Of a stretch of DNA of 64,000 nt, positions 21,966 through 53,455 are shown in pieces (the stretch's first letter is position 1; each line of letters opens with the position of its first letter). This DNA comes from an uncultured Shewanella sp. (GTDB taxonomy: Bacteria; Pseudomonadota; Gammaproteobacteria; Enterobacterales; Shewanellaceae), in assembly GCF_947491715.1 (NCBI RefSeq), contig NZ_CANLKR010000012.1, forward strand, positions 44,501 through 108,500. The letters are read 5' to 3'. A model generated the notes under the pieces. It saw only the letters and a list, made by a program, of their open reading frames with translations, did not search any database and was not told the origin of the DNA. Made by a program: the position numbers and the translations under genes.

Positions 21966-22000
21966 AATATTTCCCTATATTTTATAATATGTTAATTCCA

Positions 22001-24726: not shown

Positions 24727-24801
24727 ATTAATTTCCTTATTCACTGATATTATTAAGAGTCCTTTAGTATTCGGCACTCATTTACAATAAACGAAAAACA
24801 A

Positions 24802-24829: not shown

Positions 24830-24883
24830 TAATGATTTTACTTTTACCTGCTGCATCACAATCTTGCCCCCTATTGAATCGAT

Positions 24884-25809: not shown

Positions 25810-25904
25810 TATCCATCTTCCTGAAGCATATTGATCTTTAAAGCTTAAACGATATTCAAAGTGTATCTTTTGTATTCAAGGAGTCGAGGGGTTAGCCTAC
25901 ACTT

Positions 25905-26624: not shown

Positions 26625-26712
26625 TGAGGAATGAGAACGCTAAATAATACGCAGACAGATAGATCAATGATTGCTCGCAGACAATAATATTTTTAAATTA
26701 TAAATAAGTAGG

Positions 26713-37864: not shown

Positions 37865-38244
37865 TAGTTGTCCCTTTGTATGTTAAATGAGATTACTGCC
37901 ATAAAAATACTTAGAGTATGGGTAACCAAACTGACTATTAATTATAGCCTGGTAAATTCCTTTGATTAATCTTGTGCAATGTATTGATGACATCGTTTGA
38001 ATTTTACCAGGTACATATTTTCATATGAAAAAGAAAAAAGGATCATTCATACTTAATACGCATATTGACTAGAGGTCAATATTACAACAAAACGAAGGTA
38101 TGCTGCCTCTGATATGAACATTTACAATCCATTATCTATCTTTTTAACCCCTTATAAGAACGGAGCTTTGAGTCTCCCCGCTAATAGTCCTTTATTATGA
38201 CTAGAGCACTAGAGACGATAAGGGTCAAAGTACTCACATCACAG

Positions 38245-39003
38245 TCAATGACCCTTTCTAGCCGCATTCTGTGGCAACATAAGAACAAGAAAAATTATCG
38301 TTAGAATGAGTACACCGGAAGCAGTATATCGACTGAGTGCTAATCCTCCATGAACAACAGGTTTATCGAGAAAATCCCCCACAACAGCGCCTAAAGGGCG
38401 AGTAAGCACAAAAGCCAGCCAAAATAACAATGTTCTCGACATGCTAGTGAAGTAATAGATAGCAATAATTAAGCACAACCCAGCACCAAAAATATAAGCG
38501 GCCCCCACATACCCAAGGCCTGCAGTATCGGCAGTCCAATCCCCAAGCGCTGTGCCTAATGTCTGAGAAAACATTATTGTCAGCCAATAAAACATTTCAG
38601 CTTTGGGCTCTGATACTGAGCCGACATGAATAGAACCTAATGTACGCTGCCAAGCAAAAAGGGTCAGGGCTAACAAAGTGATTAATATTAACGATCCCCC
38701 TAAGTAACCAATCCCTAGAGAACGGTCAACAAAATCGGCTAGCGTGGTGCCAAGCGTGGTTGAAGCAATAATGGTGACCCAATATAAAAATGGATGAAAA
38801 CGATTAGCCTTAATTTGTGCAAAAACAACGATGATAAAGAAAGCAATAAATATCCCAGTCCCCAGTAAATAGCCCATATTCATTGACATCGATACAGCAT
38901 CACCACCGGTTTCTCCAAGTGTAGTGGCAAGTATTTTTATCACCCAAAAACCAAGCGTCACAGCCGGTACTTTACTTAATACTTGTTTCGTATCAGTATT
39001 CAT
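38245..39003 (-). CDS. integral membrane protein with internal repeats (COG4705-like)
   Basis: Repeated ...TTLGETGGD / TTLADFVDR / QTLGTALGDW / RPLGAVVGDF helix-end motifs. The start is uncertain (39003 or 39027). Confidence 0.5.
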   Translation of the reverse strand: MNTDTKQVLSKVPAVTLGFWVIKILATTLGETGGDAVSMSMNMGYLLGTGIFIAFFIIVVFAQIKANRFHPFLYWVTIIASTTLGTTLADFVDRSLGIGYLGGSLILITLLALTLFAWQRTLGSIHVGSVSEPKAEMFYWLTIMFSQTLGTALGDWTADTAGLGYVGAAYIFGAGLCLIIAIYYFTSMSRTLLFWLAFVLTRPLGAVVGDFLDKPVVHGGLALSRYTASGVLILTIIFLVLMLPQNAARKGH

Positions 39004-39140
39004 ATCGTTTATTTCCTTCCTCATCACTCATTCAATGAATACTAACAAAATAATCTATCTCCTTATTTATATTTTTGTTCATTAAATTTAATCAATTATC
39101 ATCAATAAATCAGATGGTTATTGTTACACAATGTAAACAA

Positions 39141-40373
39141 CTAATCTTTGTCATTCCGATGAAGCTTAATCACAAGCCGATAGAATTCATCACGTGAAAT
39201 GAGTCCATTATCATCAAAATCTGCATATTGAAACATACTCTTCATCTCTAAATTTGTTATTTTAGGGTTAATCGTATTGACACAAGAATAAAACTCATCG
39301 GATGTAATTTGACCGTCATTATCTTGGTCGAACATCGAAAAAAATTCACCAATCGTTGGCGATAAACAAGCCTCACCTAAGTCCATTTCCATAATTTCAA
39401 CAAATTTCTGAAAACCAATTCCCATTGAACCACTTTGATTAACCTTGCCAAGATGCGTAATAAGGTCTTGTATTTTTTCGATAGAATATCGCTTCCCCGA
39501 AGACTCCAATAAAATAATCAGCTCTTGCATATCTAAATCCCCACTACCATCAACATCAAGTTGACCAAACAAGGTTCGATATTCCTCCTCCTTTTCTTGA
39601 GAAATCTGATGGGACAATAATGCTTGCTTCCCATCATTCATTAGATAACCAAATTGTTGCCAAGCTTTTAGTTCACTGTGGAACAATAACCATAGCGTAT
39701 TAGGATCTCGACCAAACATCATTTTTCCTGTTGCCGGATCAATACGAGTCATGAGATCAAATCGACAAGAAGATCCATGCATAAATTCAATTTCTTCAGC
39801 TGTTGATTGCCGCCTTAGCAGGTCATTTCTATGTGGAAAATGGCCAAATGTCTGAATGACCTCAAAATGCTTCACAAAAATAGAGCGAAACCCATGAAAC
39901 GCAATAGGTAAACGTGGTTCAATTTTTAAATAATGTTGCACACACTGCTTTTGAGACTCAAGATCTTCAATGTGGGTGAGGATCAATCCTGGAAGAAATA
40001 ACTGATGGACAGGTGAAAGAACCGACTGCCAATCATGTGATTGATTAACAATCGCTAAAGCAACCTCTTCACCTGCAAACATATCGATACTGTCACGATA
40101 AATGTTACGTGGGAATTGATCCACAAGGATCATTAATCCCACGCAGCCAATTGGAGATTGCATCCAATGATTATAATAACCTTCAATTGCTTTCTCCACA
40201 TGCTGATGAAAATGCTCGCGAATATCTCGATCAATTTTCGCACTCTTTTTAAACCAACACTCTACGCACTTTAACGCATTTGGCTCACCATTCTGATCTT
40301 TAATAAACATATAATGAATAAGAGACTCAATTAAATTGTGATCAACTTGGGTTAATTGCTTCTTCATCTTCAC
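39141..40373 (-). CDS. DUF924-domain protein fused to C-terminal EF-hand calcium-binding motifs
   Basis: The N-half has a DUF924-like pattern (WFKKS...DRDI...ILVDQFPRNIYR). The C-half has three canonical 12-residue EF loops: DVDGSGDLDMQE, DQDNDGQITSDE and DFDDNGLISRDE. Confidence 0.6.
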   Translation of the reverse strand: MKMKKQLTQVDHNLIESLIHYMFIKDQNGEPNALKCVECWFKKSAKIDRDIREHFHQHVEKAIEGYYNHWMQSPIGCVGLMILVDQFPRNIYRDSIDMFAGEEVALAIVNQSHDWQSVLSPVHQLFLPGLILTHIEDLESQKQCVQHYLKIEPRLPIAFHGFRSIFVKHFEVIQTFGHFPHRNDLLRRQSTAEEIEFMHGSSCRFDLMTRIDPATGKMMFGRDPNTLWLLFHSELKAWQQFGYLMNDGKQALLSHQISQEKEEEYRTLFGQLDVDGSGDLDMQELIILLESSGKRYSIEKIQDLITHLGKVNQSGSMGIGFQKFVEIMEMDLGEACLSPTIGEFFSMFDQDNDGQITSDEFYSCVNTINPKITNLEMKSMFQYADFDDNGLISRDEFYRLVIKLHRNDKD

Positions 40374-40491
40374 TCCATCATCTCTTTGAACATGTTAATA
40401 CCATGCTAACTCAGATCTCATTTATTCATACCACCATTCCATTTTTTTGAATAAAAGCCACTGGCATACTTTACCAACAAAGCCCCCCTAA

Positions 40492-42747
40492 TCAAAACTG
40501 ATACCGAAAATAACCACCCGATGTCGCGTTATCTGGATACCAGTCAAATTCAATGGGCGTTACACCATCCACATAAAAATCGTTATTGCCAAACACAATA
40601 AAATTCATCGCATGAGTTGGGCTGTTAATCCAATGCAATGGTAAAAACACCTCCCCCGTCTGGCCGCTCCAAATCCGGCCCATTTCATAACCGCCACTAT
40701 TGGGTGAGACAATCCATTGCCAATCATTTCCAGAACCTGAATATTGGTAAACATTCACCCCTTCGATTAAGTAATCAGCGCCAATGGGAAAGGCAGTAAT
40801 CCCCCCAAAGCTGCCTTTAAATCCAGTGGTGGCATCATCGTCACTATCGATAAAGACTTGAAAACCCCAGCTGATGTAAATGTTAGTTTCATTGGTATAG
40901 GCCATCAATAATTCATTGGTATCAGTCGTATGAGCAACGTGAATACCTCTCCAATTGGCTTGATTGCCTTGACCACTGATGTTATCCGCAGCGCTGACTT
41001 CAACGATATCGTCAGGATCCACCGGATAGGCTACAATCGTCGACCAATCTCCTAATAAACCATCTAACGTAATTAAGGATTTAAGGATAGGGTTTGACAT
41101 GGGCGTTGCAAGTGAATAGGTCAAGCCCAAATCCTCTTCATTTCGATTCCCTTTAGCATCTTCTGTATAAACTTTGACACGAAAATCATCACCTAAGGTC
41201 AAACCGGAAATCACGGCTTGGTTGGCGCTATGCTCGATTGGATTATGTAACCATGCAGGATTAGTGGTAAAGGCAACATCATCATGCACAGTAATACTGC
41301 CTGTTGACAGGTTTTCAACCGAAATGTCGTAATGGACGGGATAGGATTGATCGATAGCCATATCCCATGTAATAACCATATCTGTTGAGGTCGCCCCTTC
41401 TGTTACCGATTGCGCGCCGACTCTCATGTTGGTATTTGGCGTGTTATATAAATGGTGACCCGTATTATCCCAAGCGGGTGGTGTGCTATCGTTATGGCTG
41501 TCTGGTAACAACGCTGCCATTGCCAAACTATACGTGGCTAAATCACCATTCGGTGCTAAATAGTTAACCAAGCCCATTTCTCTTACAGCAATCTCAAAAC
41601 TGTCTAATTCAACGTGTTGGCGACCACTTTGATAATCTAAACCAAACACAGTGAAGCCGTCTTCTCGATTCGATTCAGCAATGACTTTGGGGGCACTGTT
41701 AAAACGGTTCTCGTTATAGTACTCAGACACACCATTTGTTCCATCCGTTGAGGGATCGCTGTCATAGCGAAAGCTCTCAAACAAAAATGCGTTTATATAA
41801 GGACGAATATTGTAATCTATTGAATATTCATTCGTAACGGGGCTTTTGAGCCCAGGTGAGAAATAAAAGGCGCCACGATTGGCCATCACGAGTTTATTAG
41901 GATATTGATCGCTAATGAATTTAACCGTTTGTTGCATGGCCTGAGCAGTCCAAGGGTACCAGCCAGCATTATCGTAAGGCCCCGCGGTATCAATGGTATC
42001 TAAAAAGAATCCATCAAAACCGAAGTTTGTTGAGCGTTCACGAAGGTTGGAGGCGTCTCTACCACCCGCTAATTGCGCTAAGCCTGCCTTGTATTGACGG
42101 CCAGCGACATTGGCAGAGCCTATCCTCATGTTATCCAAAACCCAGCGCCAATTCGCATCGGGATACACCATAAATCCATGAAAGTGCGGATTTAAATCAG
42201 GTAAACCATCGGGGGTTAATCGAGCAGTCGTTGTCACGCTTTCAACATCACCGTTTGGGTGATAAGTGACTGTTTGTGTATCAACATCCATATAAAAACT
42301 TTGTAGCGTCGTAGCCGGTACAGTGACAAGTTGATGAGAGGATGGATCGTATGCCCTCATGCCAGTGCCGTTACCTAATGCCGATTCTAGTGATTGATTA
42401 ACATAGTCTTCACCAATACTGATGTAACCCAATACCTTGTCCACGCCACCCGCTTTTAAAGCCTGAACAATTTCAGGGGTAAACGTCCATTGGTTTGGTT
42501 GCACCACGACCACATCAAAGTCCGACAACGTATTAATGAGAGATTGGTTAATAACCCAATTCTCTGAACTGGCTTGAGTATTGGTATAAAAATCATTGCC
42601 GTAATAAACAATAAATGTAGAATCACTGTTTATATTAGGGATCGGCCCTCGGTCTGCTAACACATTTGTTGTAAGTAGCGTTGAGAGTAATGTTATAAGG
42701 AGTGCTGAGCGCACTAAAACGAGATAATTGACATTGAGAGTATTCAT
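40492..42747 (-). CDS. secreted multidomain protein with a GH114-like TIM-barrel (putative exopolysaccharide hydrolase)
   Basis: Signal peptide. DVVVVQP...VLGYISIGE and GFDGFFLDTID resemble GH114/GHL-type motifs. The C-terminal beta-rich domains could not be assigned. Confidence 0.4.
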   Translation of the reverse strand: MNTLNVNYLVLVRSALLITLLSTLLTTNVLADRGPIPNINSDSTFIVYYGNDFYTNTQASSENWVINQSLINTLSDFDVVVVQPNQWTFTPEIVQALKAGGVDKVLGYISIGEDYVNQSLESALGNGTGMRAYDPSSHQLVTVPATTLQSFYMDVDTQTVTYHPNGDVESVTTTARLTPDGLPDLNPHFHGFMVYPDANWRWVLDNMRIGSANVAGRQYKAGLAQLAGGRDASNLRERSTNFGFDGFFLDTIDTAGPYDNAGWYPWTAQAMQQTVKFISDQYPNKLVMANRGAFYFSPGLKSPVTNEYSIDYNIRPYINAFLFESFRYDSDPSTDGTNGVSEYYNENRFNSAPKVIAESNREDGFTVFGLDYQSGRQHVELDSFEIAVREMGLVNYLAPNGDLATYSLAMAALLPDSHNDSTPPAWDNTGHHLYNTPNTNMRVGAQSVTEGATSTDMVITWDMAIDQSYPVHYDISVENLSTGSITVHDDVAFTTNPAWLHNPIEHSANQAVISGLTLGDDFRVKVYTEDAKGNRNEEDLGLTYSLATPMSNPILKSLITLDGLLGDWSTIVAYPVDPDDIVEVSAADNISGQGNQANWRGIHVAHTTDTNELLMAYTNETNIYISWGFQVFIDSDDDATTGFKGSFGGITAFPIGADYLIEGVNVYQYSGSGNDWQWIVSPNSGGYEMGRIWSGQTGEVFLPLHWINSPTHAMNFIVFGNNDFYVDGVTPIEFDWYPDNATSGGYFRYQF

Positions 42748-42945
42748 AACATTAATCCTTTACTTTAATGAACAAGTCCATTGTCACAACATTCATTGAT
42801 CCCTTAATTTTAGCCTCAAATCGTGACATCAGACATTAAAATGGTTAAATGTTCCCCCTTCTAGTCCCCTTCTAGCCAATCTTCTAGTTAATAAAAAGCC
42901 AAGCAAAAGCCAATCAAAAGCTGATCGGGTCAACGAGTAAGCCTT

Positions 42946-42996
42946 GTTAAATGCTTAAGCTTTATTAACAGCTTAACCACTAGCAAGAATGGTCAC
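42946..42996. repeat. left copy of an approximately 48-bp direct repeat
   Basis: GTTAAATGCTTAAGCTTTATTAACAGCTTAACCACTAGCAAGAATGGTCAC compared with the copy at 44335-44383. Confidence 0.7.
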
Positions 42997-43078
42997 TTTG
43001 GCCTAAGCAGCTTATTTTCAATACGTTATAGATAGTTGTGCTTGCTGGTTGCTTAAAAGTTTACTCTGACCCCACTTT

Positions 43079-43885
43079 TTACAATTTAACGGATCTTACC
43101 GCTATCATGGTTTGCATATATTCCTCAATAAGAAAACGAGGACTCGGGTGATCATCCTCATAAAATCCTGATACTACAAATCCAGCCTCTATCTGTTGAC
43201 CAATCTGCTGTGTCAATGTATGACCAAAAACTAATGCTTCTCCATTTAACCGTTTCTCTTTATAGTCCTTTTCTTCCAAGCTACTAACGTCAGAATAAGG
43301 CAACACATATTTAGGCTTCAGTAATCCTTGTTCAATTGTTGGCGTATCTTTATCAAATATAAAAAGAACCGGATTATAAAAACTGGTCAGCAATACACCA
43401 CTTTGTTTCAACACACGGTAACACTCTCGCCACAGTGACTCCAAAGCAGGAATGTATAAATTTGAAATAGGTGAAAGGATAAAATCAAAGGTGTTATCAC
43501 TAAAAACGGAAAGATCGCGCATATCACCTTGAATGGTTTTAAGCGTCAATCCATCCCGTTGAGCGATGAAATCATCTTTTTCCAACTGACCTTTAGATAT
43601 ATCGTAAACGGTAACGTCTGCACCTGCAGCAGAGAGAACAGGCGCTTGCTGACCTCCGGCGGATGCAAGGCAAAGAATTTTCTTTCCTCTTATATCCTTT
43701 GGTAACCAATCATCATCTAAGGCTTTCTTGGTGATATGAACATTCCAATGCCCTTGTTTCGCTTGCTCGATAATCTCTTGTGATACAGGCCTAGACCAAG
43801 CCCCATTTGCTTGCGCATAACCATCCCAAACAACACCGTTGTGCTCAACGACATATTTATCTTTATCTAAATTATTTTCAGTCAT
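43079..43885 (-). CDS. class I SAM-dependent methyltransferase
   Basis: Rossmann-type motif I ILCLASAGGQQ, an acidic residue after beta-2 (VYDIS), and post-I/II motifs. Confidence 0.65.
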   Translation of the reverse strand: MTENNLDKDKYVVEHNGVVWDGYAQANGAWSRPVSQEIIEQAKQGHWNVHITKKALDDDWLPKDIRGKKILCLASAGGQQAPVLSAAGADVTVYDISKGQLEKDDFIAQRDGLTLKTIQGDMRDLSVFSDNTFDFILSPISNLYIPALESLWRECYRVLKQSGVLLTSFYNPVLFIFDKDTPTIEQGLLKPKYVLPYSDVSSLEEKDYKEKRLNGEALVFGHTLTQQIGQQIEAGFVVSGFYEDDHPSPRFLIEEYMQTMIAVRSVKL

Positions 43886-43995
43886 AATACATTTCCAGAA
43901 TAGCGACCATCACTGCGTATTTAATAACAAACGTATTAATGATCGACTTATGATGACAGTCGGTTTTAACCCTCAATGCCTAATACATGCCCTGA

Positions 43996-44039
43996 TTAAA
44001 ATAGAGTTAAAATAGGGCCAAAATAGGGTTAAAATAGAC
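43996..44039. repeat. four tandem 11-bp iteron-like repeats (TTAAAATAGRG)
   Basis: TTAAAATAGAG TTAAAATAGGG CCAAAATAGGG TTAAAATAGAC, contiguous with an 11-bp period. Confidence 0.8.
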
Positions 44040-44334
44040 ACCACAGATAATGCTTACTTTAAAATATGATGAAACTGCTAAGCATGGCTCTACTTCGATA
44101 ATAGAACGGATAGAAACAATAGCAGTGAGAAAAATATCCTTATGAACATATCTGCAACGATAAAATACACTTAAATTTTTATAAAAAATAATAGTGTCAT
44201 TTTAGTTACTTGTTCATATCGGTATTCTCCATTGTTGAAGGGGATAACAATTCAGACCATGGAGCATACCTCCCCTGCCCTCAAGATTCAACTGCAACCC
44301 AAATAATAAAAAATCGTTAACCAAACCATCCATG

Positions 44335-44383
44335 GTTAAATCCTTAAACTTTATTAACAACTTAGCCACCAGCAAAGGATCAC
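44335..44383. repeat. right copy of the approximately 48-bp direct repeat
   Basis: GTTAAATCCTTAAACTTTATTAACAACTTAGCCACCAGCAAAGGATCAC. Most positions are identical to the left copy. Confidence 0.7.
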
Positions 44384-44486
44384 AACTCTCAACCTCAATA
44401 TTTTCTAACTTACCATCTACTTTACTTTCAATTGTTTAGAAGTAAATAATTGTGGGGAGGTTATGGCAAGCCCCAAAAATTTAAAA

Positions 44487-45323
44487 CTAACTGGTTTCAC
44501 TTTCAGTTGCTAACTTTACCCGATTAAATAAACATAGTTGTTGTTTACCAGATGCTATTAACTTTTGCTCTAGAAATCTTGTTACATCTGCATCAAGATC
44601 ATCACTATTAATTTTTTCTACAAGCATATCGAGACCATATAGTTCAGAATGAGTTTCTTTACTCTCTAATAAATAAATAATTAAAATCGCTACCGAATTG
44701 GAATACTTCGAAACCCAATCCTTTTTACTCAAACTGTACAAGAGGTTAGAATGAGTAAGATCTGATACAGGCATAAGTTTTATCAGGCTAACCATCTTCT
44801 CGAAAAGATCTGGAATATTCTTAAGTAAACTCAACATAGCTCCAGCTTCCTTAGCATCAAAGAGCATTGGTTTTCCCTTAATACGGTTCTGCCAATATGG
44901 TTTAAACCAACTTATCCATATATCTGACTGACGAATAGATTTCTGCTTAGAGAAAAAACGAGACAAGTGACAAGCGAAAATGACCTTATGCTCACCTGAC
45001 ATACCATCTGATAATAACTTGGGTAACCAATCTATATGTGGATTTTCAACACACCAAAATGCAACTGCAACATAGTGCTCAATAAACTTAGCTTCTTTCC
45101 CAGGCAAAAGTTCTTCAAACATTCCTCTCATTTTTTCAAAGTACGGTCTAACACTGGCAAACAAAGTAGCGCTTATACCACTACTAGCCAATAATCCATG
45201 CCAAGCTTGCTCAGTTCTTTTAGATGTTGACTCAAGTAATTGTAATATATGCTCCACCGTCCATTCAGCATCTACATTGTAAAGAAAATTAATCTGCCGA
45301 CAGAGTAATGCTAATTCAGACAC
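44487..45323 (-). CDS. hypothetical all-helical protein, possibly the 3' remnant of a larger gene
   Basis: The ORF opens with GTG three codons after an in-frame stop, with no SD, and the first ATG comes only after about 60 codons. No motif recognised. Confidence 0.35.
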   Translation of the reverse strand: MSELALLCRQINFLYNVDAEWTVEHILQLLESTSKRTEQAWHGLLASSGISATLFASVRPYFEKMRGMFEELLPGKEAKFIEHYVAVAFWCVENPHIDWLPKLLSDGMSGEHKVIFACHLSRFFSKQKSIRQSDIWISWFKPYWQNRIKGKPMLFDAKEAGAMLSLLKNIPDLFEKMVSLIKLMPVSDLTHSNLLYSLSKKDWVSKYSNSVAILIIYLLESKETHSELYGLDMLVEKINSDDLDADVTRFLEQKLIASGKQQLCLFNRVKLATESETS

Positions 45324-45559
45324 CCAAAATTAATTTCTTACGACACAGCCCAAAATCCACGGGCTACAAAGCGACTCTTTGAGCTATCTCAGTGACATCA
45401 AGGTGAATTTAACATCATCATCGTCAGTAATGATATAAAAATAACTGATCCATATGGGTTTCAGACAAGAGTCAATCGCAGAGCAATATTTTAAGCGTGT
45501 TCAGAGCGATATAAAGATGGGAGGACACATGATTAGAACTCAATACTCATCAAAAGCCA

Positions 45560-46579
45560 TTAAGCACTATCAAGCCAACGATGACAATTCCCAGCGCCTT
45601 GTCGCCGCTTTCGCTCTAAATGAGCACAATAGGCATCCAGTTCTTGTAAGCTACCTGCTGGGCCTTTAAATAAACGAGTAAACTCTGTCGTCAATTTAAG
45701 CCAGTTTTCTTGGGGAATATTCAATCTATTGAGAATAGGCATAGCTAACTCACTGATTGAACCTCGCTTATCGTTTCGCTTATTATGAAGAATTAGTCGC
45801 CCCGTTTCATCTACTAACTTCAAATAATCACCCAAATGAAAGTGTAATCCTTTTGGCATATCAAGCCTTTCATTACCTACAAACGCCAATAAATTTGCAG
45901 GTTGTTCACCTTTAAACGCAGCCTTTATGCGCCTTTGAATACTGGTAAAATCTGACTGCTCTGGCGTGTCTGCAATTTTTGCGCGAATAGGATTTAAATC
46001 GACATAGGCCATACAAGAAAGTACCGCCGCCTCATCTAATAATGCTTGGCTTTTAAACCGTCCTTCCCAAAACCGTCCACTACACTTGTCCTCAAAATTC
46101 GCTTTTCTTGCAATAGGTTCATTTAGTGCTCTCATGAACCAGCTTATATCACTTAGGCGACTTCGGTACTTTGCAATCGTTTTTGATAATAAAACCATTT
46201 CATGAGGCTCTAATGACACATCATTAGTCAATTTTTGGGTAATATCAGTTCCATTGAATAACTGATGCCAGCGCTCGGCAACTTCAAGTTCAGACCAAGA
46301 GTTTGCTTTATAAATATCCACATTTAATACTAAATGCAGATGATTTGACATCACCGCATAGGCACAGATATCAATGGCAAAAACGTCTGCAAGCTCAAGG
46401 ATTCGGTCTTCAACCCATTCACGTCGATGCTCATAAGATTGGCCTGTGTAATCATCAACACCACACAGGTAAGCCCGCCTAACACAGCGAGATACACAAT
46501 GATAAAAGGAAGTGTCTTCCAAGCTCACTATCGCTTTCCTTGATGTCGGCATAAATCCATCCATTGATAGCTTATTCAC
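45560..46579 (-). CDS. Y1 HUH (IS200-like, COG1943-type) transposase-like protein, long form
   Basis: HUH motif SNHLHLVL and catalytic-Tyr context AYVDLNPIRAKI. N-terminus TSFYHCVSRCVRRAYL is typical of this family. Confidence 0.7.
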   Translation of the reverse strand: MNKLSMDGFMPTSRKAIVSLEDTSFYHCVSRCVRRAYLCGVDDYTGQSYEHRREWVEDRILELADVFAIDICAYAVMSNHLHLVLNVDIYKANSWSELEVAERWHQLFNGTDITQKLTNDVSLEPHEMVLLSKTIAKYRSRLSDISWFMRALNEPIARKANFEDKCSGRFWEGRFKSQALLDEAAVLSCMAYVDLNPIRAKIADTPEQSDFTSIQRRIKAAFKGEQPANLLAFVGNERLDMPKGLHFHLGDYLKLVDETGRLILHNKRNDKRGSISELAMPILNRLNIPQENWLKLTTEFTRLFKGPAGSLQELDAYCAHLERKRRQGAGNCHRWLDSA

Positions 46580-46619
46580 TCATCAAAGCCTAGTTTATGG
46601 TCATTAATAAGTCAAATAA

Positions 46620-47450
46620 CTATGGGTGTCTAAATTGATCCGATAACTTGCCATGAATACGCAAAAGATAAGACCATGGGTCTTCTGACTCTATACGATG
46701 AACTGCTCGATGACAGTTTGCACATATGATTGCAAGATCAGATTCCTTAGTTTTTTCACCAGCCTTTATTTTATTCAATGGTTTTTTATGATGTGCCTCT
46801 GCATAACTAAAACCATACTTGGGCAGAAAGTCATAGCCGCACACTTCACAAAATAAAGAGCCATTTTCCTTAACAAATCTCTCTTTTGCTTTTTTTACCA
46901 ACAGGCTATCTCGTTCCCTTACTTTGTGAGTCCTAAGGCGCGTTTTACTTTCATCTGTTTCATACTCATCATCTTCAAGGTCGAGTGTTTCTTCATGCCA
47001 CAACGACCAAATTTTGCTAAATTCGCTTATTGTTAACTTGAAGTTTGTACCTTGTCTTGCAGTTAAGAGCTGCATCTTTGACAGCTCTTTATCTCTGAGC
47101 AGCAGGCTCGACTCGACCAGTCCCTTGTTAATATCAAGCCGAGTTTCCTCGATCCTTATTCCAACCTTAATCTCAGAAACCTCTCTTTTCTCCCAGTACT
47201 CCTCAAGTAAGAATTCAGGGTGAAGCACTTTGTTTTTATCTGTGGGAGCTTCAGTTATTTTTCCGTACGCAACTAGCCCATACGGATCTTTAGATTTACC
47301 TTTAGAACGCCATATGAAAACTCTGTCACCAACTAGCATTTCAGCTTGATGCTTTCGGTGCTTAACAGCCCAGTAGATGTAGTCGAAGTCTTTAAGATAC
47401 GTATCTATATCAAAGTCTTCTCTATTTCCTCTAAATATCCAGTCGGTCAC
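46620..47450 (-). CDS. EVE (PUA-like) domain fused to an HNH nuclease; candidate modification-dependent (type IV) restriction endonuclease
   Basis: The N-terminal pattern WIFRGN...YWAVKH...VGDRVFIW...GLVAYGKI resembles EVE domains. The C-terminal CEVCGYDF...AHHKKPL...CANCHRAVH is an HNH zinc-finger nuclease motif. GTG start preceded by GGAGAG. Confidence 0.65.
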   Translation of the reverse strand: MTDWIFRGNREDFDIDTYLKDFDYIYWAVKHRKHQAEMLVGDRVFIWRSKGKSKDPYGLVAYGKITEAPTDKNKVLHPEFLLEEYWEKREVSEIKVGIRIEETRLDINKGLVESSLLLRDKELSKMQLLTARQGTNFKLTISEFSKIWSLWHEETLDLEDDEYETDESKTRLRTHKVRERDSLLVKKAKERFVKENGSLFCEVCGYDFLPKYGFSYAEAHHKKPLNKIKAGEKTKESDLAIICANCHRAVHRIESEDPWSYLLRIHGKLSDQFRHP

Positions 47451-47464
47451 AATCTCTCCGCAGA

Positions 47465-47528
47465 GTTATAACGCACGTGTCACGGGGACCGAGCGTAGCG
47501 AGGGATCCCGTGGACACGCTTGTTAAGT
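47465..47528 (-). other. integron attC site (end of the cupin cassette)
   Basis: Minus strand reads ACTTAAC-AAGCGTGTCCACGGGATCCC...GGTCCCCGTGACACGTGC-GTTATAA: RYYYAAC and GTT cores flanking an imperfect palindrome with bulges. The gene's stop codon lies inside the first core. Confidence 0.75.
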
Positions 47529-47897
47529 GGTTTTTTTTGATTGGCTTGGATATGAAACTTCTAATACCAAACATTCTTCTTCACACACAAATGGCCCATG
47601 AATCTCTCCAGGAGGCCTACTAGCAAAATGGCCCGCCTCCAGCCAAACATCAAAGGCCTCATCATACAAACGACCCGACACTATATAAATTTCTTCTGGG
47701 TATTCATGTGATTTACCACCAAAGCTTTTTGTGTCAGCTCCTTTTTTGAATCTTGTTAATCGTGTGTAATCCCCTGTATTTAGATCCATTGCCAAAGTAA
47801 GCTCTTCCAGCATACCATTTGTTCCATCAATGGGTTTCCATTTATCTTTGTTTTCACTTGCAAGAACATTCCAGTATGTGGCTGTATCTTTTCCCAT
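47523..47897 (-). CDS. cupin-domain protein (integron cassette 2)
   Basis: Small beta-barrel pattern (HEYPEEIYIVSGRL...PPGEIHGPF), bounded by attC sites. Confidence 0.6.
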   Translation of the reverse strand: MGKDTATYWNVLASENKDKWKPIDGTNGMLEELTLAMDLNTGDYTRLTRFKKGADTKSFGGKSHEYPEEIYIVSGRLYDEAFDVWLEAGHFASRPPGEIHGPFVCEEECLVLEVSYPSQSKKTT

Positions 47898-48017
47898 GCA
47901 TCCCCCTCTTATTACTCAGTACTTTTCCATTCCATACCAGAATAAATTTACAACAATGCAAAGTTCTTGACTATCGTTTTTTAAATTTTCATGCAGGATT
48001 TATATTCGCTAATTACC

Positions 48018-48079
48018 ACTTAACGCCAAGCACACCGGCTGCGCGTCTAGCGCAGTCCGAGTGGTGCGCCTTGTTATAT
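48018..48079 (-). other. integron attC site (end of the LysE cassette)
   Basis: Minus strand reads ATATAAC-AAGGCGCACCACTCGGACTGCG...CGCAGCCGGTGTGCTTGGC-GTTAAGT. It starts 6 nt after the LysE stop and is an imperfect palindrome with extrahelical bases. Confidence 0.75.
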
Positions 48080-48085
48080 GGCTAT

Positions 48086-48697
48086 TTATCGGCTTGAGGC
48101 TGCTAAACCAATACCAAAGCTAATGAAAATACTACCACTGATTTTGTTAAATAATGATTTATTATTATGAGGAAGTAGTTTTGATTTTGCTATAACTGCA
48201 AATATGGCATACAACATATGAATAATTATTACTAAAATACTAAACGTAACTGCTAGTATAAATAATTGACTGCTGTAATCTTGAGTTTTATCAATAAATT
48301 GAGGAAGTATTGATATGAAGAATATTATTGCTTTTGGGTTCGATGTGGAAACCATAAAACCTTCAAAAAAACACTTTAAGGTTGAAGTATTTGTGGTGTT
48401 CATTGATGTTTTAATTTCAGATTTATCTCGCAACATTTTCAACCCTAGATAGACCAAATAAGCTGCACCAACAAACTTTAAAATTGTAAATGCTACTACT
48501 GACTGTTCTAACAATACTCCTAAGCCAGTAGCCGAAATAAGGGCGATTAAAAGAATCCCAAGAGCAACTCCCAAAATTCCAGAAATGGCCTTCACTAACC
48601 CTTTTTGAATTGAGTTATTTATAGTCAGCAATACTGCTGGCCCAGGTAATGAAATGGTAGCCATAGCTACACCTATATACACTAGATAAATATCCAT
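48086..48697 (-). CDS. LysE/RhtB-family exporter (integron cassette 1)
   Basis: PGPAVL, TSNPKAIIFF and six TM segments. It is the first gene after the attI junction. Confidence 0.75.
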   Translation of the reverse strand: MDIYLVYIGVAMATISLPGPAVLLTINNSIQKGLVKAISGILGVALGILLIALISATGLGVLLEQSVVAFTILKFVGAAYLVYLGLKMLRDKSEIKTSMNTTNTSTLKCFFEGFMVSTSNPKAIIFFISILPQFIDKTQDYSSQLFILAVTFSILVIIIHMLYAIFAVIAKSKLLPHNNKSLFNKISGSIFISFGIGLAASSR

Positions 48698-48728
48698 TCT
48701 TACTCCTTAGGATAGATTTTTTGGGAGT

Positions 48729-48738
48729 GCCATATAAC
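48729..48738 (-). other. probable attI/first-cassette recombination junction
   Basis: Plus-strand GCCATATAAC here is the exact reverse complement of GTTATATGGC at 48073-48082 in the LysE attC. This is expected if the cassette was inserted at G/TT. Confidence 0.55.
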
Positions 48739-49073
48739 AGCTTATTCAACAGCAGCAGGATAATCTTCCAGACTGCATACTATTTTTAAGCTAGAGTATA
48801 CTACTAACCCATTGTTATACAATCATTATCAATCAAAAGTTAACTATTTACTAACTAGAAACCAAGAAAAAAACATGCAGCAGTGTTTACGAGGTCTGCA
48901 TATCACTTTTTAACATATAATTAAAAGTTAAATTATATCAATTAATTGTGTAACTTTTCTACTTTATACTCAATATTATCGCTGCATCGAATATTGCTAT
49001 CCCTATGATAATGACCTTATGGTAAATGAGTCGCGCATCTTTTTTCTTGCACAATATTCAAAACCAGCTATAA

Positions 49074-49089
49074 CTGTATATAAACACAG
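49074..49089. promoter_or_regulatory. LexA (SOS) box CTGTATATAAACACAG at the intI promoter
   Basis: Perfect CTGT-N8-ACAG, 19 nt upstream of the intI ATG. TTGCAC (49047-49052) and TATAAC (49069-49074) form a plausible -35/-10 that abuts or overlaps it. Confidence 0.7.
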
Positions 49090-49107
49090 TTGTATATTGG
49101 TAATCAC

Positions 49108-50066
49108 ATGGGCCAGTTACAGTATTTAGAAGCGATACGAACGGAAATAAGAATACGTCATTATAGCTATCAAACGGAAAAATCCTATCTCTATTGGAAT
49201 CGATATTTTATTCGTTATTCAACGATCCGCCATGGCTCAGAAATTACCAGCGCATTAATAGAGCGGTTTCTTTGTTATTTAGCTAAGCAACGTCAGGTTT
49301 CCGCAAATACGCAAAAGCAAGCCTTATGCGCCATTGTATTTGCATGTCGATATGTATTAAAAATAGATACTGAACACTTAATCTTTCCTTATGCAAAAGC
49401 GCCAAAAAAATTACCACAAGTATTATCAAGTGAAGAAGCTAAGTTGATAATCGATCAATTACCCGGTTATCATCACCTGATTGGGCGATTCTTTTCGGCT
49501 CAGGACTACGATTAAAAGAAGCACTACGGATCCGAATAAAAGACATTGATTTCGGAGAAAAGTCGATTTTTGTGTATCAAGGAAAAGGTCAAAAAGACCG
49601 TGTCTGCATGTTACCTCAAACAATAATATCTCAATTAAACGTCCAAATTACACACGTTAAAGCAATTCATGATCATGATCTAGCAGCAGGATTTGGGCTA
49701 GCATCATTACCCATTTCACTTATGCGCAAATATCAAAATAGTGCCGCACAGTTTCATTGGCAATACCTTTTTCCTGCGAGTCGCCGCTGTGTACACCCTA
49801 GTGATCATTATATTTGTCGTCATCACATACATCCCACCGCATTTTCACGTGAATTAAGACAAGCAACAAAACGAGCTCAGATCAATAAACGTGTCACAGC
49901 ACATACTTTCCGTCATTCGTTCGCGACATGTTTATTACGCAAAGGCTATGATATCCGTACAATTCAAGAAATGTTAGGTCACACTGATGTTAAGACAACA
50001 CAAATATACACCCATGTCATTGGTGGACATTATAGCGGTGTGATAAGCCCTCTTGATCATCAATAA
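49108..50066 (+). pseudogene. intI: integron integrase, disrupted by a one-base frameshift
   Basis: N-terminus IRIRHYSYQTEKSYLYWNRYFI. IntI-specific insertion [25 protein letters not shown]...RHHIHP. Catalytic HTFRHSF, LGH and IYTHV. The frame changes in the T-run at 49492-49495, and the alternate frame reads [20 protein letters not shown]. Confidence 0.85.
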
Positions 50067-50223
50067 ATATCTTCATCGTTCATATTGACCTTACTTGGTT
50101 TATTCGTTAATCAACAAGATCACTTAACCTTCATTCAAAGGCGCTCGTTATTCGACAAAAATCCCAATAGAAACTAAAAAGCCAATTCAAAGCAACCCTC
50201 CTGATTTTTCTTTTGATTTAAAT

Positions 50224-50598
50224 CCCCATCGAAGTTGCCGAAGATATTTTATCAGTCATTGCGTGAGCGAGGGACGGCAGTTCCTTAACGTCCATGTTAT
50301 CACTGCATTTGTGGATCCCTTCACATCAGTGCCGCAATAGCCTTAGTTGAGTCAAGGTCGTTCCTTGACGGCCCTGTCACCACGACATTTGTTAGTCCTA
50401 AACATCAGACGACGAATATGAGGCGATAACTATTCTTGTCCTTTGAATTATAAAGCGCTTTGCTCCGCTAGAGGCGGCACAGGTGATCCAAGAGGGGATT
50501 GCTGTTGATCCCCTTTTGATCCAGTGTGGATGGAAATTCACGACTTTAGCCTCACCGCAGGTGATAATAAATAAACTCCGTTGGGCGTTATGATTATT
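50224..50598. repeat. structured non-coding block downstream of the DUF900 gene (shared 20-nt motif plus internal imperfect tandem repeat of about 80 bp)
   Basis: CCCCATCGAAGTTGCCGAAG (50224-50243) recurs as CCCCATCGAAATTGCTGAAA at 51849-51868. The units at 50281-50339 and 50361-50418 are related (TTCCTTRACG...CATTTGT...ACATCAG...GAATA). Confidence 0.5.
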
Positions 50599-51696
50599 CT
50601 ACTGTCTAAATATCCAATAAACCCCATCATCACTCACTTGCTCCAACAACCCCGCTCTCTCCTTTGCTCGTAAATTGTTGTGGATTATATAAAACATATC
50701 TGCAATCAAAGATCGCTCATCCGCATAGTATGAATGCCCCAAGAAACCAGTTTCAACACTCGTGGCATCAATAGTCTCTATGCCATCAAACACGATTATA
50801 TTTTCTCCAGTGTCACCCGCTCTAGGATAGCCACCATGGATCAGTTTAGAGGCGTTTAAAGGCACATCCTTTGATGAGGCGTACAAGGTTATAGGACGCT
50901 TTGCCTCAACTAAAGCAGGAGCTATTTCTCTTTTAAATACTTCAGCATCGATATCGGGTGCCGCTAGGATGACTTCTCTAATACGAGATCTCACTGACGG
51001 GTTTTCTTTAACCACATTAATATAAGCACGCGTTAGAGCTCTATTGCCCATACTGTGTGCAATTAAATAGATGTTTTCTGCACTTGTTTGAGTCAGAACA
51101 TCAGCTAAGAAATTCTTGATATTATTCTCAGCCCACTGAATGTTGGCTTCATCAAATGTATACTTTGGAATGCTTCCATGTGATGGCCAACTATAGAATA
51201 TTGGCGCACCATCAAAGCCAAGATCATAAGACATTTGAGCCGTTCGGCGCGCTGCATCCTCAAAAGTGACATTGTAACCGTGCACAAATATGAATGCGTT
51301 ATTCGTCGATGAACTGCCTATCTCTTTAGTCAGTAAGTCAAAATAGATTTCTTTTTTTAAGGGCTCAATAGCAAGAAGAACGATATGATCTTTGGCATCT
51401 TCACTAAATTCAAACCTCCAAATTGATGGCGATTCCAACTCACCCATTCTGTGATCCCTAGGAATACTGACTTTCGTTTTCCCGTATGAAATAACACCTC
51501 TTTCAGCGCCAAAGTATGATTTCATATTAGACATATCATCTTGCTTTCTATCAGTAGCAAAAAAGACTTCCATAATGGCGTAGTCTGCTTCTGAACTCGC
51601 CTTTGCTACGATGTTATTTGGGCTTTCATTTCGATTCTGGCAACCGATTACAATGATAGGGATAAAGATAAAAAGTAACGTTTTAATTCTGTCCAT
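50599..51696 (-). CDS. DUF900-family alpha/beta hydrolase lipoprotein
   Basis: FVHGYNVTFEDAARRTAQMSYDLGF...FYSWPS and the IAHSMGN nucleophile elbow. ATG at 51696 gives MDRIKTLLFIFIPIIVIGC, a lipobox. Confidence 0.7.
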   Translation of the reverse strand: MDRIKTLLFIFIPIIVIGCQNRNESPNNIVAKASSEADYAIMEVFFATDRKQDDMSNMKSYFGAERGVISYGKTKVSIPRDHRMGELESPSIWRFEFSEDAKDHIVLLAIEPLKKEIYFDLLTKEIGSSSTNNAFIFVHGYNVTFEDAARRTAQMSYDLGFDGAPIFYSWPSHGSIPKYTFDEANIQWAENNIKNFLADVLTQTSAENIYLIAHSMGNRALTRAYINVVKENPSVRSRIREVILAAPDIDAEVFKREIAPALVEAKRPITLYASSKDVPLNASKLIHGGYPRAGDTGENIIVFDGIETIDATSVETGFLGHSYYADERSLIADMFYIIHNNLRAKERAGLLEQVSDDGVYWIFRQ

Positions 51697-51829
51697 CGCT
51701 ATTATCCTATTTCTGACAATTGAATCGAAACATAACGCTAAATTGAGCCGCTGCGATAATCCATGCACAACTTGATTGTTACATAATTGAAACTATTGTA
51801 AATGATTAAATTTAACCCACTGGCTGTAA

Positions 51830-52095
51830 TGCTTTTGCTTTTAAGGCTCCCCATCGAAATTGCTGAAATGCATTCAACAAATCATGTGAAACGTATAGGG
51901 AGATACGGTTAGCTTTCGCGGGACAGGACGTCCCATCGGAAGCGCTAATGATTTTTTGAATAAGCATGAAGCTCGTACTTAATTGCAGGTAATTTCGTCG
52001 GGCTTTATGGTGAATACTGGAGGGCGAAGACCATAATAATGGCCTCTTTGAGCAAGAGATAGGGCCGTTTCATAGCATCCCTGCTATCACGGCAT
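51830..52095. repeat. second structured non-coding block carrying the shared 20-nt motif
   Basis: The motif at 51849-51868 has a partial inverted partner AATTGCAGGTAATTTCGTCGGGC about 130 bp downstream. The block abuts the stop of a small ORF. Confidence 0.45.
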
Positions 52096-52302
52096 TCATA
52101 AATCCCCTTCTATCGATACCGAAACCACCTTCGCATCAAAATCAAGCTGAGATAAGTAATATGCAAGTAGATTAGATACAACACCGCAAGAGCCTATAGG
52201 AAAATCAGTTAATGCTTCACTCCCTTCGAATTCTAAAGCATCCTCTGCTGATAAGCGTTGCACTGCTTGCCTAAATTGACTCACCAACTGATACAGTTTC
52301 AT
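52096..52302 (-). CDS. small hypothetical protein, possibly a truncated gene
   Basis: ATG at 52302 (MKLYQLVSQF...). It ends exactly where the repeat block begins. No motif recognised. Confidence 0.3.
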   Translation of the reverse strand: MKLYQLVSQFRQAVQRLSAEDALEFEGSEALTDFPIGSCGVVSNLLAYYLSQLDFDAKVVSVSIEGDL

Positions 52303-52383
52303 CCTTTCTCCTACTGTAATAAATAGATCAAAAATAACGCAATAATATTTACGATACAAAAATCCAGTAAACCTATTACAATC

Positions 52384-52407
52384 AAAAAAGGCCAGCGAAT
52401 GCTGACC
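52384..52407 (-). terminator. rho-independent terminator after ruvB
   Basis: Minus strand reads GGTCAGC-ATTC-GCTGGCC followed by TTTTTT, 40 nt after the ruvB stop. Confidence 0.65.
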
Positions 52408-52447
52408 TTCTCATTTTGCAACCATTTACAACAATGATTACGCTAAC

Positions 52448-53455
52448 CTACTCTGGCTTGGCCAAATCAAAATGCTGATAGGCTCTTTGGGTGGCGATAC
52501 GGCCTCTAGGGGTCCGCTGAATAAAACCTTGTTGGATCAAAAACGGCTCCAACACATCTTCAATGGTTTCGCGCTCCTCACCAATGGCGGCAGCGAGATT
52601 ATCCAGCCCAACAGGCCCGCCCATGAATTTATCGATAATGGCAAATAACAGTTTCCTGTCCATGTAATCGAAACCTTCATTATCCACATCCAGTACATCC
52701 AGCGCTTGCTGAGCAATCAATTGGGTGATGGCGCCATCATGCTTCACTTCAGCAAAATCTCGCACGCGGCGTAACAACCGGTTGGCAATACGCGGAGTGC
52801 CACGAGAGCGCCTAGCGATTTCACCAGCCCCCAGCGCATCAATTTCCAGCCCCATCACATTGGCCGAGCGGGTCACAATGGCGCTCAAATCTTTGACATT
52901 ATAAAACTCAAGCCGCAAGGGAATACCAAAGCGAGCACGAAGAGGCGAGGTTAACGCGCCTGCACGTGTGGTAGCACCAATTAACGTGAACGGCGGTAAG
53001 TCTAATTTTATCGAACGCGCCGCAGGTCCCTCACCTATCATAATATCCAGCTGATAATCTTCCATCGCCGGGTATAAAATCTCTTCCACAACGGGGCTTA
53101 AACGATGAATTTCATCAATAAACAACACATCATGAGGCTCAAGGTTGGTGAGCAATGCAGCCAAATCGCCTGCTTTTTCAAGTACAGGGCCTGAGGTCGA
53201 TTTAATGTTGACGCCCATCTCCCCTGCCACAATCATGGCAAGCGTCGTTTTCCCCAATCCCGGCGGACCATAGATCAGAATATGATCTAAGGCTTCTTCC
53301 CGTTTTTTTGCCGCTTCAATGAAAATCTTTAACTGGGCGCGGGTATCATCTTGACCTGTGTATTCATCGAGTAATTTAGGGCGCATCGCCCGATCGACCA
53401 CTTCATCTTGTATGATGGCTTGCGGCTGAATAAGCCTATCTGCCTCTATCATCAC
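52448..53455 (-). CDS. ruvB: Holliday junction branch migration ATPase RuvB
   Basis: Near-collinear with E. coli RuvB as I recall it: [36 protein letters not shown] and [20 protein letters not shown]. Confidence 0.97.

Follow-up and report, generated by a model that had tools for sequence, protein, structure and literature searches.

A small chromosomal integron with a frameshifted integrase gene and two captured cassettes in a Shewanella genome

Features of the locus

The 64,000-nucleotide stretch of Shewanella DNA analysed here (the window) contains an integron integrase gene, intI, on the plus strand and, on its upstream side, an attI region followed by genes on the opposite strand that are bounded by attC sites. 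Its closest relative among the loci compared is one from a sister genome, designated L001. The features are as follows, listed from the integrase gene leftward.

49108–50066, plus strand: intI, an integron integrase pseudogene in which a single −1 frameshift divides an N-terminal SAM-like part from a C-terminal catalytic part; the repaired product has 319 aa
49481–49483, plus strand: frameshift site, reading GGG where the closest relative has GGGG (loss of one G); placed by nucleotide alignments with L001, stop-codon bracketing and the fit to the family after repair
49074–49089, plus strand: LexA (SOS) box CTGTATATAAACACAG, pattern CTGTAT-N6-ACAG, 18 nt ahead of the ATG at 49108
48736–49046, minus strand: attI region, with the crossover core GTT at 48738–48736 (G/TT), placed by the end of the L001 homology
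48932–48961, minus strand: candidate cassette promoter Pc (TAGAAA, 18 nt, TG-TATAAT), a consensus match that points into the cassettes
48024–48737, minus strand: cassette 1, 714 bp, a LysE/RhtB-family exporter gene (48086–48697; Pfam LysE, E = 3.7e-38) plus its attC, with limits set by the attI and attC crossover points
48016–48081, plus (folding, bottom) strand: attC of cassette 1 (covariance model R1, 40.7 bits, E = 1.3e-7), folding at −17 kcal/mol into a hairpin whose 3′ arm has three bulged bases
47472–48023, minus strand: cassette 2, 552 bp, a ChrR-type cupin gene (47523–47897; Pfam Cupin_7, E = 4.6e-10) plus its attC
47464–47530, plus strand: attC of cassette 2, the last of the array (R1, 34.2 bits, E = 5.1e-6), folding at −13.3 kcal/mol into a hairpin whose 3′ arm has a bulged G
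46620–47471, minus strand: EVE-HNH gene (Pfam EVE and HNH), possibly a third, truncated cassette without an attC of its own
45330–46634, minus strand: IS-like element encoding a RAYT-like HUH/Y1 transposase (ORF 45560–46579), which ends the recognisable array; its 3′ limit is approximate

The surrounding genes are chromosomal housekeeping genes, with an ABC transporter on the left side and, 2.4 kb away on the right, ruvB (assigned by position and product).

The integrase gene, its lesion and its control region

The two parts of the broken gene match the Pfam families Phage_int_SAM_4 (49108–49494) and Phage_integrase (49494–50066). With the frame repaired, the protein scores 370.7 bits against the integron-integrase model TIGR02249, which has a cut-off of 265. 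The XerC and XerD models return 130 and 127 bits, far under their cut-offs of ∼330, and their matches fall into two pieces divided by the IntI-specific insertion. The repaired protein aligns over residues 5–317 with PDB 2a3v, the V. cholerae integrase IntI4/VchIntIA (E = 6e-72), such that the IntI-specific segment is covered and no gap occurs through residues ∼186–245, and it carries the extra IntI domain. Alignment with eight database homologues, six of which are named ‘integron integrase’ in their source, is also free of gaps. In the homologue alignment W218, Q219, F222 and P223 are invariant, as are the columns that hold the six catalytic residues of the repaired protein (R135, K160, H266, R269, H292 and Y301), and the RHHIHP motif and catalytic context are found in the translation. 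These results bear out the preliminary description of the locus, made from the sequence alone, which had called the gene at 49108–50066 an integron integrase with the IntI-specific insertion. That description had also named an outcome that would speak against it, namely grouping with XerC/D and not IntI together with lack of the extra domain. It was not found when the comparison was run in an equivalent form.

The nearest intact IntI proteins are encoded in Shewanella chromosomes and are 59–77% identical to the repaired protein. Among 5.8 billion sequences there is no intact protein with more than 77% identity, the sole closer match being a 3′ fragment from L001.

The reading frame that starts with the ATG at 49108 meets a stop at 49513, and the downstream frame runs from 49443 without interruption until its stop at 50064–50066, so that a single −1 shift must lie inside 49443–49512. 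At this place L001 reads GATTGGGGCAATT and the window reads GATTGGGCGATT; the TTTT run is identical in both, and once one G is added, the protein aligns gap-free with intact relatives. This places the missing base among the Gs at 49481–49483. A one-base frameshift had been recognised in the preliminary description but was placed in the T-run at 49492–49495. The frameshift itself stands, whereas the L001 nucleotide alignment and the protein alignment rule out the T-run in favor of the G run ∼10 nt upstream. Outside this lesion, intI contains no other stop or indel. In the sequence as assembled there is thus no intact intI frame; translation would end after 135 residues, ahead of the catalytic domain. 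The intI gene of L001 is broken as well, by a different lesion, a 17-bp duplication that is evident in the nucleotide alignment.

The pattern CTGTAT-N6-ACAG occurs at two sites in the window, compared with 0.09 expected by chance. Of 31 related intI loci, 27 have a box of this pattern at the equivalent position, and that of L001 is identical, which upholds the earlier report of a perfect LexA box before the intI ATG, save that the distance is 18 nt and not 19 nt. As read from the sequence, a candidate PintI is formed by a −35-like TTGCAC (49047–49052) and, after 16 nt, a −10-like TATAAC (49069–49074) that abuts the LexA box. An E. coli-type LexA box would thus overlap the putative intI promoter, suggesting SOS regulation of intI in this organism. 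Promoter-like consensus matches in the searches for Pc and PintI are no more numerous than expected from shuffled sequences, and both promoters are candidates in this sense.

attC sites, cassette junctions and attI

To locate attC sites we used a home-made covariance model, R1, as a substitute for the model of IntegronFinder; a hairpin heuristic had picked its 40 training attC sites from other Shewanella integrons. The training alignment is 94.9% paired and holds 159 compensatory cells versus 42 in shuffles, with slid controls pairing at <50%. In 31 related loci R1 gives 93 matches, all on the intI-sense strand and almost all upstream of intI. Across the window it gives exactly two, the plus-strand sites listed above. 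No further attC was found in the whole window with default filters, nor over 38000–53000 with filters off (E ≤ 10) beyond noise of ≤13 bits. The cores, of the form TAAC...GTTA, lie at 47469–47525 and 48021–48076, and an independent single-hairpin scan of the 64 kb for this form recovers the same two sites only. A stricter heuristic, requiring at least 5/7 R-box matches inside a single attC, picked up neither site, since the outer portion of R′ is part of the following cassette; a looser version worked.

In both folds the R boxes pair, a spacer is present and bases bulge out of the plus-strand 3′ arm, and the hairpin z-scores by themselves are modest (−2.5 to −2.9). The two are not close copies of each other, and are short variants compared with the ∼92-nt repeat that dominates other Shewanella arrays. 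Rfam searches gave nothing relevant and no attC match, either at gathering thresholds across the whole window or at permissive thresholds over 47000–50700. The palindromes at 48018–48079 and 47465–47528 that had been proposed as attC sites occupy the same places as the R1 matches, whose limits are a few nucleotides wider. The covariance-model test suggested for them, run in equivalent form with R1, scores both (E = 1e-7 and 5e-6). Elsewhere in the window, 15 small same-strand genes at 17.3–27.1 kb (GNAT, glyoxalase, LysE and GFA, with 60–100 bp spacers) were considered as a second, integrase-less array and were rejected: the spacers are AT-rich and lack AAC/GTT hairpins, and R1 has no match there.

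The junctions can be read directly from the sequence. For cassette 1, GCCATATAAC (48729–48738) pairs with GTTATATGGC (48073–48082) at 10/10 positions, and for cassette 2, ACCACTTAAC (48015–48024) pairs with GTTAAGTGGT (47522–47531), again at 10/10. Each pair includes 7 matched bases besides the common AAC/GTT, for which the chance is ∼6e-5 per pair. The proposal that the start of each cassette is complementary to the inner core of its own attC therefore holds for both cassettes. Neither cassette gene is present in the other 79 loci compared, distant LysE paralogues aside.

Comparison with L001 defines the attI region. The two loci have 48735–50223 in common at 94.6% nucleotide identity and nothing else. 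Identity in the attI region is ∼93% up to the TAAC at 48735–48738 and stops exactly there, and beyond this point L001 carries cassettes and attC sites unlike those of the window. On the right, different chromosomal genes start in L001 ∼120–155 bp past the intI stop. The 1.49-kb attI-intI platform (48735–50223) thus behaves as a discrete module with both flanks unrelated. The attI region adjoins intI and is divergent from it, and the first cassette is joined to it at the GTT core. A comparison of sister genomes for cassette turnover had been recommended in the preliminary description; it places the break in homology at the predicted attI crossover, with different cassettes there. The differing cassette content at the same attI is the only sign, and an indirect one, of site-specific recombination.

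In integrons, production of IntI follows the removal of LexA upon DNA damage. The integrase binds the folded bottom strand of the attC hairpin; recombination between attC and attI inserts a cassette, and recombination between two attC sites excises one. Crossover occurs at G/TT, and a promoter in the attI/intI region drives cassette transcription. At this locus intI lies on the plus strand behind a putative LexA-repressed promoter, with attI divergent from it. Two promoterless cassettes are inserted at attI on the minus strand, the LysE-family exporter first and the cupin second, each closing with its own attC, and the bottom (folding) strand of these attC sites is the plus strand. With the integrase truncated, the platform would not move its own cassettes unless another integrase of the cell acts in trans, and the two cassettes would in effect be fixed genes.

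Beyond attC2 lies an EVE-HNH gene that resembles a cassette gene and is cut off by the IS-like element. The array may once have been longer. On this view the EVE-HNH gene (46620–47471) is a third cassette, which lost its 3′ end and attC through insertion of the RAYT-like IS and the accompanying rearrangement. We put this forward tentatively, as a possibility somewhat short of probable; it extends the main explanation and does not compete with it. On the cassette strand, the EVE-HNH ORF begins 22 nt beyond the attC2 crossover. The IS-like element supplies the final codons of this ORF and its stop, which lies within the conserved IS end motif TAGACACCCAT at 46622–46632. The opposite side of the element adjoins a 5′-truncated gene fragment, and GCCTTGTTAAAT at 42941–42952 is similar to the attC consensus at its 3′ end. 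Further left, a Dsr1-like fragment and a methyltransferase flanked by 45-nt repeats may be cassette remnants or other accessory DNA. Elements of the same IS family lie inside other Shewanella arrays, where they interrupt cassette ORFs: a 1293-bp IS unit occurs twice in L009, and homologues are found in or adjoining the arrays of L010, L014, L019 and L023. Against a longer array, R1 finds no attC or half-attC left of 47464, and GTTATAAC, the core expected for the partner attC of EVE-HNH, was not found downstream. Moreover, the last attC of any array must adjoin non-cassette DNA, so the nearby gene start can be coincidence. The NCBIfam model REP_Tyr_transpos gives 38 bits with the transposase, under its cut-off. 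The idea that RAYT-like elements target attC hairpins is unsupported, since in L009 the element sits inside cassette ORFs and not at attC.

Alternative explanations and relation to other integrons

The locus is very probably a small chromosomal integron of a Shewanella genome, with a frameshifted intI under a presumably SOS-controlled promoter, an attI and two captured cassettes. It belongs to a well-known kind and is described as an ordinary chromosomal integron. It is best described as small and strain-specific, with two attC sites, and not as a large sedentary array. The name “chromosomal integron” given in the preliminary description is sound as regards the integron, to which the integrase model, the attC model, the junctions and the sister genome all testify. 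It does not extend to a large sedentary array: rather than tens of cassettes with near-alike, species-typical attC at a fixed locus, there are two attC sites, and the context of L001 differs.

The view that the locus is no integron, but a tyrosine recombinase of XerC/D-like or phage type with REP-like or terminator palindromes nearby by chance, is already effectively refuted. Weak secondary matches to the XerC, XerD and XerA models would be obtained with any tyrosine recombinase. The gene passes the integron-integrase model and falls far under the Xer cut-offs, with the Xer matches split by the IntI-specific insertion. Hairpin z-scores alone are modest, as this view would have it; nevertheless, the palindromes fit a structure-based attC model, are strand-specific and unique in the window, and match no Rfam family, and both the junction logic and the sister-genome comparison fit integron recombination. 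It is also very improbable that a mobile integron of the class 1–5 type, carried on a transposon or plasmid, has integrated into the chromosome. An IS-like element is close by, and the platform is highly similar in L001 while both flanks differ, so that it sits in another context there. However, the repaired IntI reaches just 264 bits against NF011946 (the PRK15417 integron-integrase equivalog; cut-off 435), its nearest intact relatives are chromosomal Shewanella proteins of ≤77% identity, and housekeeping genes lie to either side of the locus. No transposition module, resistance cassette, transposon ends or terminal inverted repeats were seen.

More weight attaches to the alternative of a complete, functional integron, in which the absence of a G at 49481–49483 is a homopolymer sequencing or assembly error and the cell makes a full-length, SOS-inducible IntI. 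The lesion is one base in a G run, and loss of one base from a short homopolymer is a classic assembly error; it leaves every catalytic residue, the LexA box and the rest of the gene undamaged. Conversely, a run of three or four bases is short for systematic homopolymer error, the other long ORFs of the window are unbroken, and no close homologue in the protein collection is intact. Loss of integrase function is common in general, with ∼43–46% of intI homologues inactivated and LexA control being ancestral (PMC3108266). Real decay is likelier than sequencing error because the intI of L001, the only close relative, carries an independent 17-bp duplication. We therefore consider the functional reading rather unlikely and the frameshift probably genuine, in which case the integrase would now be inactive.

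Among known systems, the V. cholerae chromosomal integron (VchIntIA/IntI4, with VCR attC sites) has the same integrase family, IntI-specific domain and catalytic residues. It likewise has intI and cassettes divergent, attC sites that are bottom-strand hairpins with bulged bases, and a LexA box in the intI promoter (PMC3108266). It differs in holding ∼180 cassettes, compared with two attC sites and two or three cassettes here. In addition, the attC sites here are short (about 57–62 nt between cores) and not near-identical repeats, and the integrase is frameshifted. Closer still are the chromosomal integrons of Shewanella (SonIntIA, SamIntIA and the ‘strain-specific’ integrase types of Ayala Nunez et al. 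2022, PMC9229058, which names 22 types), which come from the same genus and have the same attC shape, TAACGCC...CTTGTTA. In this genus intI genes are strain-specific and located at differing chromosomal sites (PMC9229058), a pattern to which the L001 copy, in its different context, conforms. Unlike those integrons, the one described here has an intI pseudogene, and its IntI is ≤77% identical to any intact protein in the collection.

A third parallel is provided by Xanthomonas and other integrons with inactivated intI (PMC2426708; PMC3108266), in which a frameshifted integrase and retained attC-bounded cassettes likewise mark a platform decaying into fixed genes. In those lineages LexA control is usually lost along with the integrase, whereas the LexA box is perfect here and identical in the equally broken L001 copy, suggesting that inactivation of intI may be recent. 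It is conceivable, albeit unlikely, that Shewanella integron platforms relocate or are exchanged among chromosomal sites without their own integrase and are then repeatedly silenced on arrival, with the LexA-controlled promoter region being kept and perhaps still driving or regulating cassettes. Consistent with this possibility, intI carries independent lesions in the two platforms while the LexA box is perfect in each.

The locus matters little beyond correct annotation, adding to the strain-specific chromosomal integrons of Shewanella another small one whose integrase has decayed. In annotation, LysE and cupin should be entered as captured cassettes, and intI as a pseudogene whose lesion is a lost G at 49481–49483. 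The locus also illustrates that close reading of raw sequence can place cassette limits to the single base. Finally, it provides another data point that integrase inactivation can come before loss of the LexA box, and it shows that close relatives can carry the same platform in chromosomal surroundings that differ, which had previously been proposed for Shewanella (PMC9229058).

attC sites and cassette boundaries

Three genes lie upstream of the + strand integrase gene intI and are divergent from it, and GC-rich imperfect palindromes follow the first two of them. The preliminary description had proposed that these palindromes are attC sites and that they bound two cassettes.

Genes, attC sites and cassettes upstream of intI (bit scores and E values from covariance model R1)
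48086-48697, -, LysE-family exporter gene
47523-47897, -, ChrR-type cupin gene
46620-47450, -, EVE-HNH gene
48016-48081, +, attC1, 40.7 bits, E = 1.3e-7
47464-47530, +, attC2, 34.2 bits, E = 5.1e-6
TT 48737-48736 to G 48024, -, cassette 1, 714 bp
48023 to G 47472, -, cassette 2, 552 bp

In 26 related loci, the DNA upstream of intI was scanned for hairpins. Dozens of the AACGCC...CTTGTT type emerged, and 40 of these, none from the window, were aligned to train R1. In this alignment 94.9% of cells are paired and 159 are compensatory, compared with 42 in shuffles; pairing is below 50% in a slid-partner control. The consensus structure of the 40 hairpins is thus strongly supported by covariation. 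Across 31 related loci, R1 has 93 hits, some of them outside the training set, in Zobellella and in an Alteromonadaceae genome. Every hit is on the intI-sense strand, and nearly all are upstream of intI.

Over the whole 64-kb window, R1 detects only attC1 and attC2. Nothing else exceeds 13 bits between 38 and 53 kb when filters are turned off, and a separate scan of the window for single TAAC...GTTA hairpins also recovers these two alone. Because this substitute attC model scores both palindromes rather than leaving them below threshold, the attC reading stands. Folded as DNA, both sites pair at their R boxes, leave a short spacer unpaired and form an L stem; one to three bases bulge from the 3′ arm of the + strand. 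Extrahelical bases would be predicted on this arm if recombination used the + strand as bottom strand and the cassettes read on the - strand.

In the circular form of a cassette, the cassette start supplies the outer part of its own R′ core. Complementarity between a cassette start and its attC is therefore expected of G/TT crossover, and the claim that each start complements the inner core of its own attC proved exact in both cases: GCCATATAAC (48729-48738) pairs with GTTATATGGC (48073-48082), and ACCACTTAAC (48015-48024) with GTTAAGTGGT (47522-47531).

Comparison with the closest relative, an uncultured Shewanella contig termed L001, bears out cassette turnover at attI. L001 is 94.6% identical over 48735-50223 and matches the window only there. 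The matching stretch has the attI core TAAC as its left end, and beyond it L001 has other genes and other attC sites, so that the relatives diverge in cassette content precisely at the predicted attI crossover.

The integrase and its frameshift

The ATG frame of intI runs from 49108 to a stop at 49513, and another frame stays open between 49443 and its stop at 50064-50066. In a domain search, the first half matches the SAM-like N-terminal domain of tyrosine recombinases and the second half their catalytic domain. Joining the frames through one added G yields a repaired protein of 319 amino acids, which passes NCBIfam TIGR02249 “integron integrase” with 370.7 bits (cut-off 265). The XerC and XerD models give only 130 and 127 bits against cut-offs of ∼330, with matches split into two stretches. 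Residues 5-317 align with the V. cholerae IntI4/VchIntIA structure 2a3v (E = 6e-72), and the segment that sets IntI apart from other tyrosine recombinases is crossed with a single one-residue gap. Integrase homologues number in the thousands among 5.8 billion proteins; the source records call many of them “integron integrase”, and the closest intact one is 77% identical. In an alignment with eight homologues, R135, K160, H266, R269, H292 and Y301 are invariant and no gap falls at the repaired position. As had been claimed, these results together place the protein with IntI, extra domain included, and not with XerC/D.

A single-base break had been placed in a T-run; the break stands, its position does not. 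Stop codons alone bracket it to 49443-49512. In a nucleotide alignment, L001 has GATTGGGGCAATT where the window has GATTGGGCGATT, with no difference in the TTTT run. Repair at the G run restores a 14-residue stretch that fits intact relatives, which carry HHLIGSILFGAGLR and a second 14-residue version. This places the lesion at 49481-49483, as the loss of one G.

An assembly error could produce such a break, and real decay is probably the better explanation, since long open reading frames elsewhere in the window are intact and the intI of L001 is also broken. That gene (L001 10001-10977) carries a 17-bp tandem duplication, TGTTATTTAGCTAAGCA, at the equivalent of 49272. The sole protein more than 77% identical to repaired IntI among the 5.8 billion is a 207-residue C-terminal fragment whose contig agrees with L001's in length (226,146 bp). 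With different lesions in the two genes, both known members of this IntI lineage appear to have been inactivated independently. Integrase inactivation is common, affecting 43-46% of homologues (PMC3108266). Frameshifted intI genes are also present in L029, L030 and L031.

Regulation and the end of the array

The LexA box described for intI is canonical (CTGTATATAAACACAG, 49074-49089), with 0.09 occurrences of the pattern expected by chance in the window. It is identical in L001, and a box of the same type occupies the equivalent relative position in 27 of the 31 related intI loci. A TATAAC hexamer abuts the box, with TTGCAC 16 nt before it, forming a plausible intI promoter. Box and putative promoter agree with the account of SOS control given by Cambray et al. 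(PMC3108266). On the - strand, TAGAAA, 18 nt and TG-TATAAT (48961-48932) could be the cassette promoter Pc, by consensus match only.

In L003, L006 and L016, the left half of the LexA box upstream of intI is replaced by ...GGATAGCCC/TTATATAAACACAG, which suggests that the same insertion or rearrangement end disrupted SOS control. Elsewhere in the window, a GFA-family gene (24382-24777, -) has a second canonical LexA-type box, CTGTATATACATACAG (24802-24817), 25 nt upstream and may be a so far unrecognised SOS-regulated gene.

The EVE-HNH gene begins 22 nt past the attC2 crossover on the cassette strand and has no attC of its own. Its last codons and stop fall within TAGACACCCAT (46622-46632), the conserved 5′ end of an IS-like element.

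Element at the end of the array
45330-46634, -, IS-like element; ORF 45560-46579 encodes a 339-aa RAYT-like HUH/Y1 transposase

The transposase, whose HUH motif reads NHLHLV, also contains the motif YVDLNPIRAK; its 38 bits on NCBIfam REP_Tyr_transpos are below cut-off. On its other side the element adjoins a 5′-truncated Dsr1-like fragment. The EVE-HNH gene may tentatively be viewed as a former third cassette that lost its end through an IS-mediated rearrangement, a reading we hold at somewhat less than even odds. In L009 the element is a 1293-bp unit with two copies in the array (820-2112 and 4784-6075; 94% identical) that interrupt cassette open reading frames, and L010, L014, L019 and L023 have homologues within or next to their arrays. 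At least six of ∼26 Shewanella integron loci have it in or beside their cassette arrays. The arrays compared give no sign of attC targeting, and may be permissive sinks for the element.

Neighbouring repeats and classification

Just right of intI is a 375-bp non-coding gap that holds two 44-nt units (50269-50312 and 50349-50392), 80 nt apart and 73% identical, directly past the end of homology to the L001 platform (∼50183-50223). They have no other copy in the window and match no Rfam family. A ∼45-nt direct repeat (42940-42986 and 44330-44375; 88% identical) flanks a SAM-methyltransferase gene (43079-43885), and GCCTTGTTAAAT before the first copy resembles the 3′ end of the bottom-strand attC consensus. 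The attC model has no match in this region, and the repeats could be a relic recombination site or unrelated.

Nine related genomes have a near-invariant 48-nt hairpin (AACACTTGGGATAAGGNCGCGGC..GCGCGGCCTATCCTTATTTGTTA) at the far side of their arrays, which is absent from the window.

Positions of the 48-nt hairpin
L002, 70-117
L005, 76-123
L006, 700-747
L007, 5936-5983
L012, 29-76
L018, 1594-1641
L025, 77-124
L030, ∼6190-6240
L043, ∼6790-6840

The DNA to its left is conserved in most copies, and that directly after GTTA is variable in all. Several contigs break just left of it, and L007 and L018 have a degenerate tyrosine-recombinase fragment ∼1.4 kb to its left. The hairpin may mark where another mobile element ends, or it may be a fixed terminal site of recombination.

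The stretch 17314-27108 holds 15 small genes, all on one strand and spaced 60-100 bp apart (GNAT acetyltransferases, a glyoxalase, a second LysE, GFA, PhzF, a serine hydrolase and others). This cluster is cassette-like in content; it was rejected as an array because its AT-rich spacers lack attC.

The evidence supports the integron reading of the preliminary description, except that the frameshift is now placed in the G run; the integron is of an already well-known kind. A class 1-type mobile integron is ruled out by a score of 264 bits on the PRK15417 integron-integrase equivalog NF011946 (cut-off 435), and a large sedentary array by the presence of only two attC sites. Its relatives mark the host as a Shewanella. 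The integron has ABC-transporter genes and other chromosomal genes to its left, and to its right a gene for a DUF900 hydrolase together with ruvB. These flanks recur in no other Shewanella locus compared, and those of L001 are unrelated. This agrees with the report that Shewanella integrase genes are strain-specific and located at different chromosomal sites (PMC9229058).
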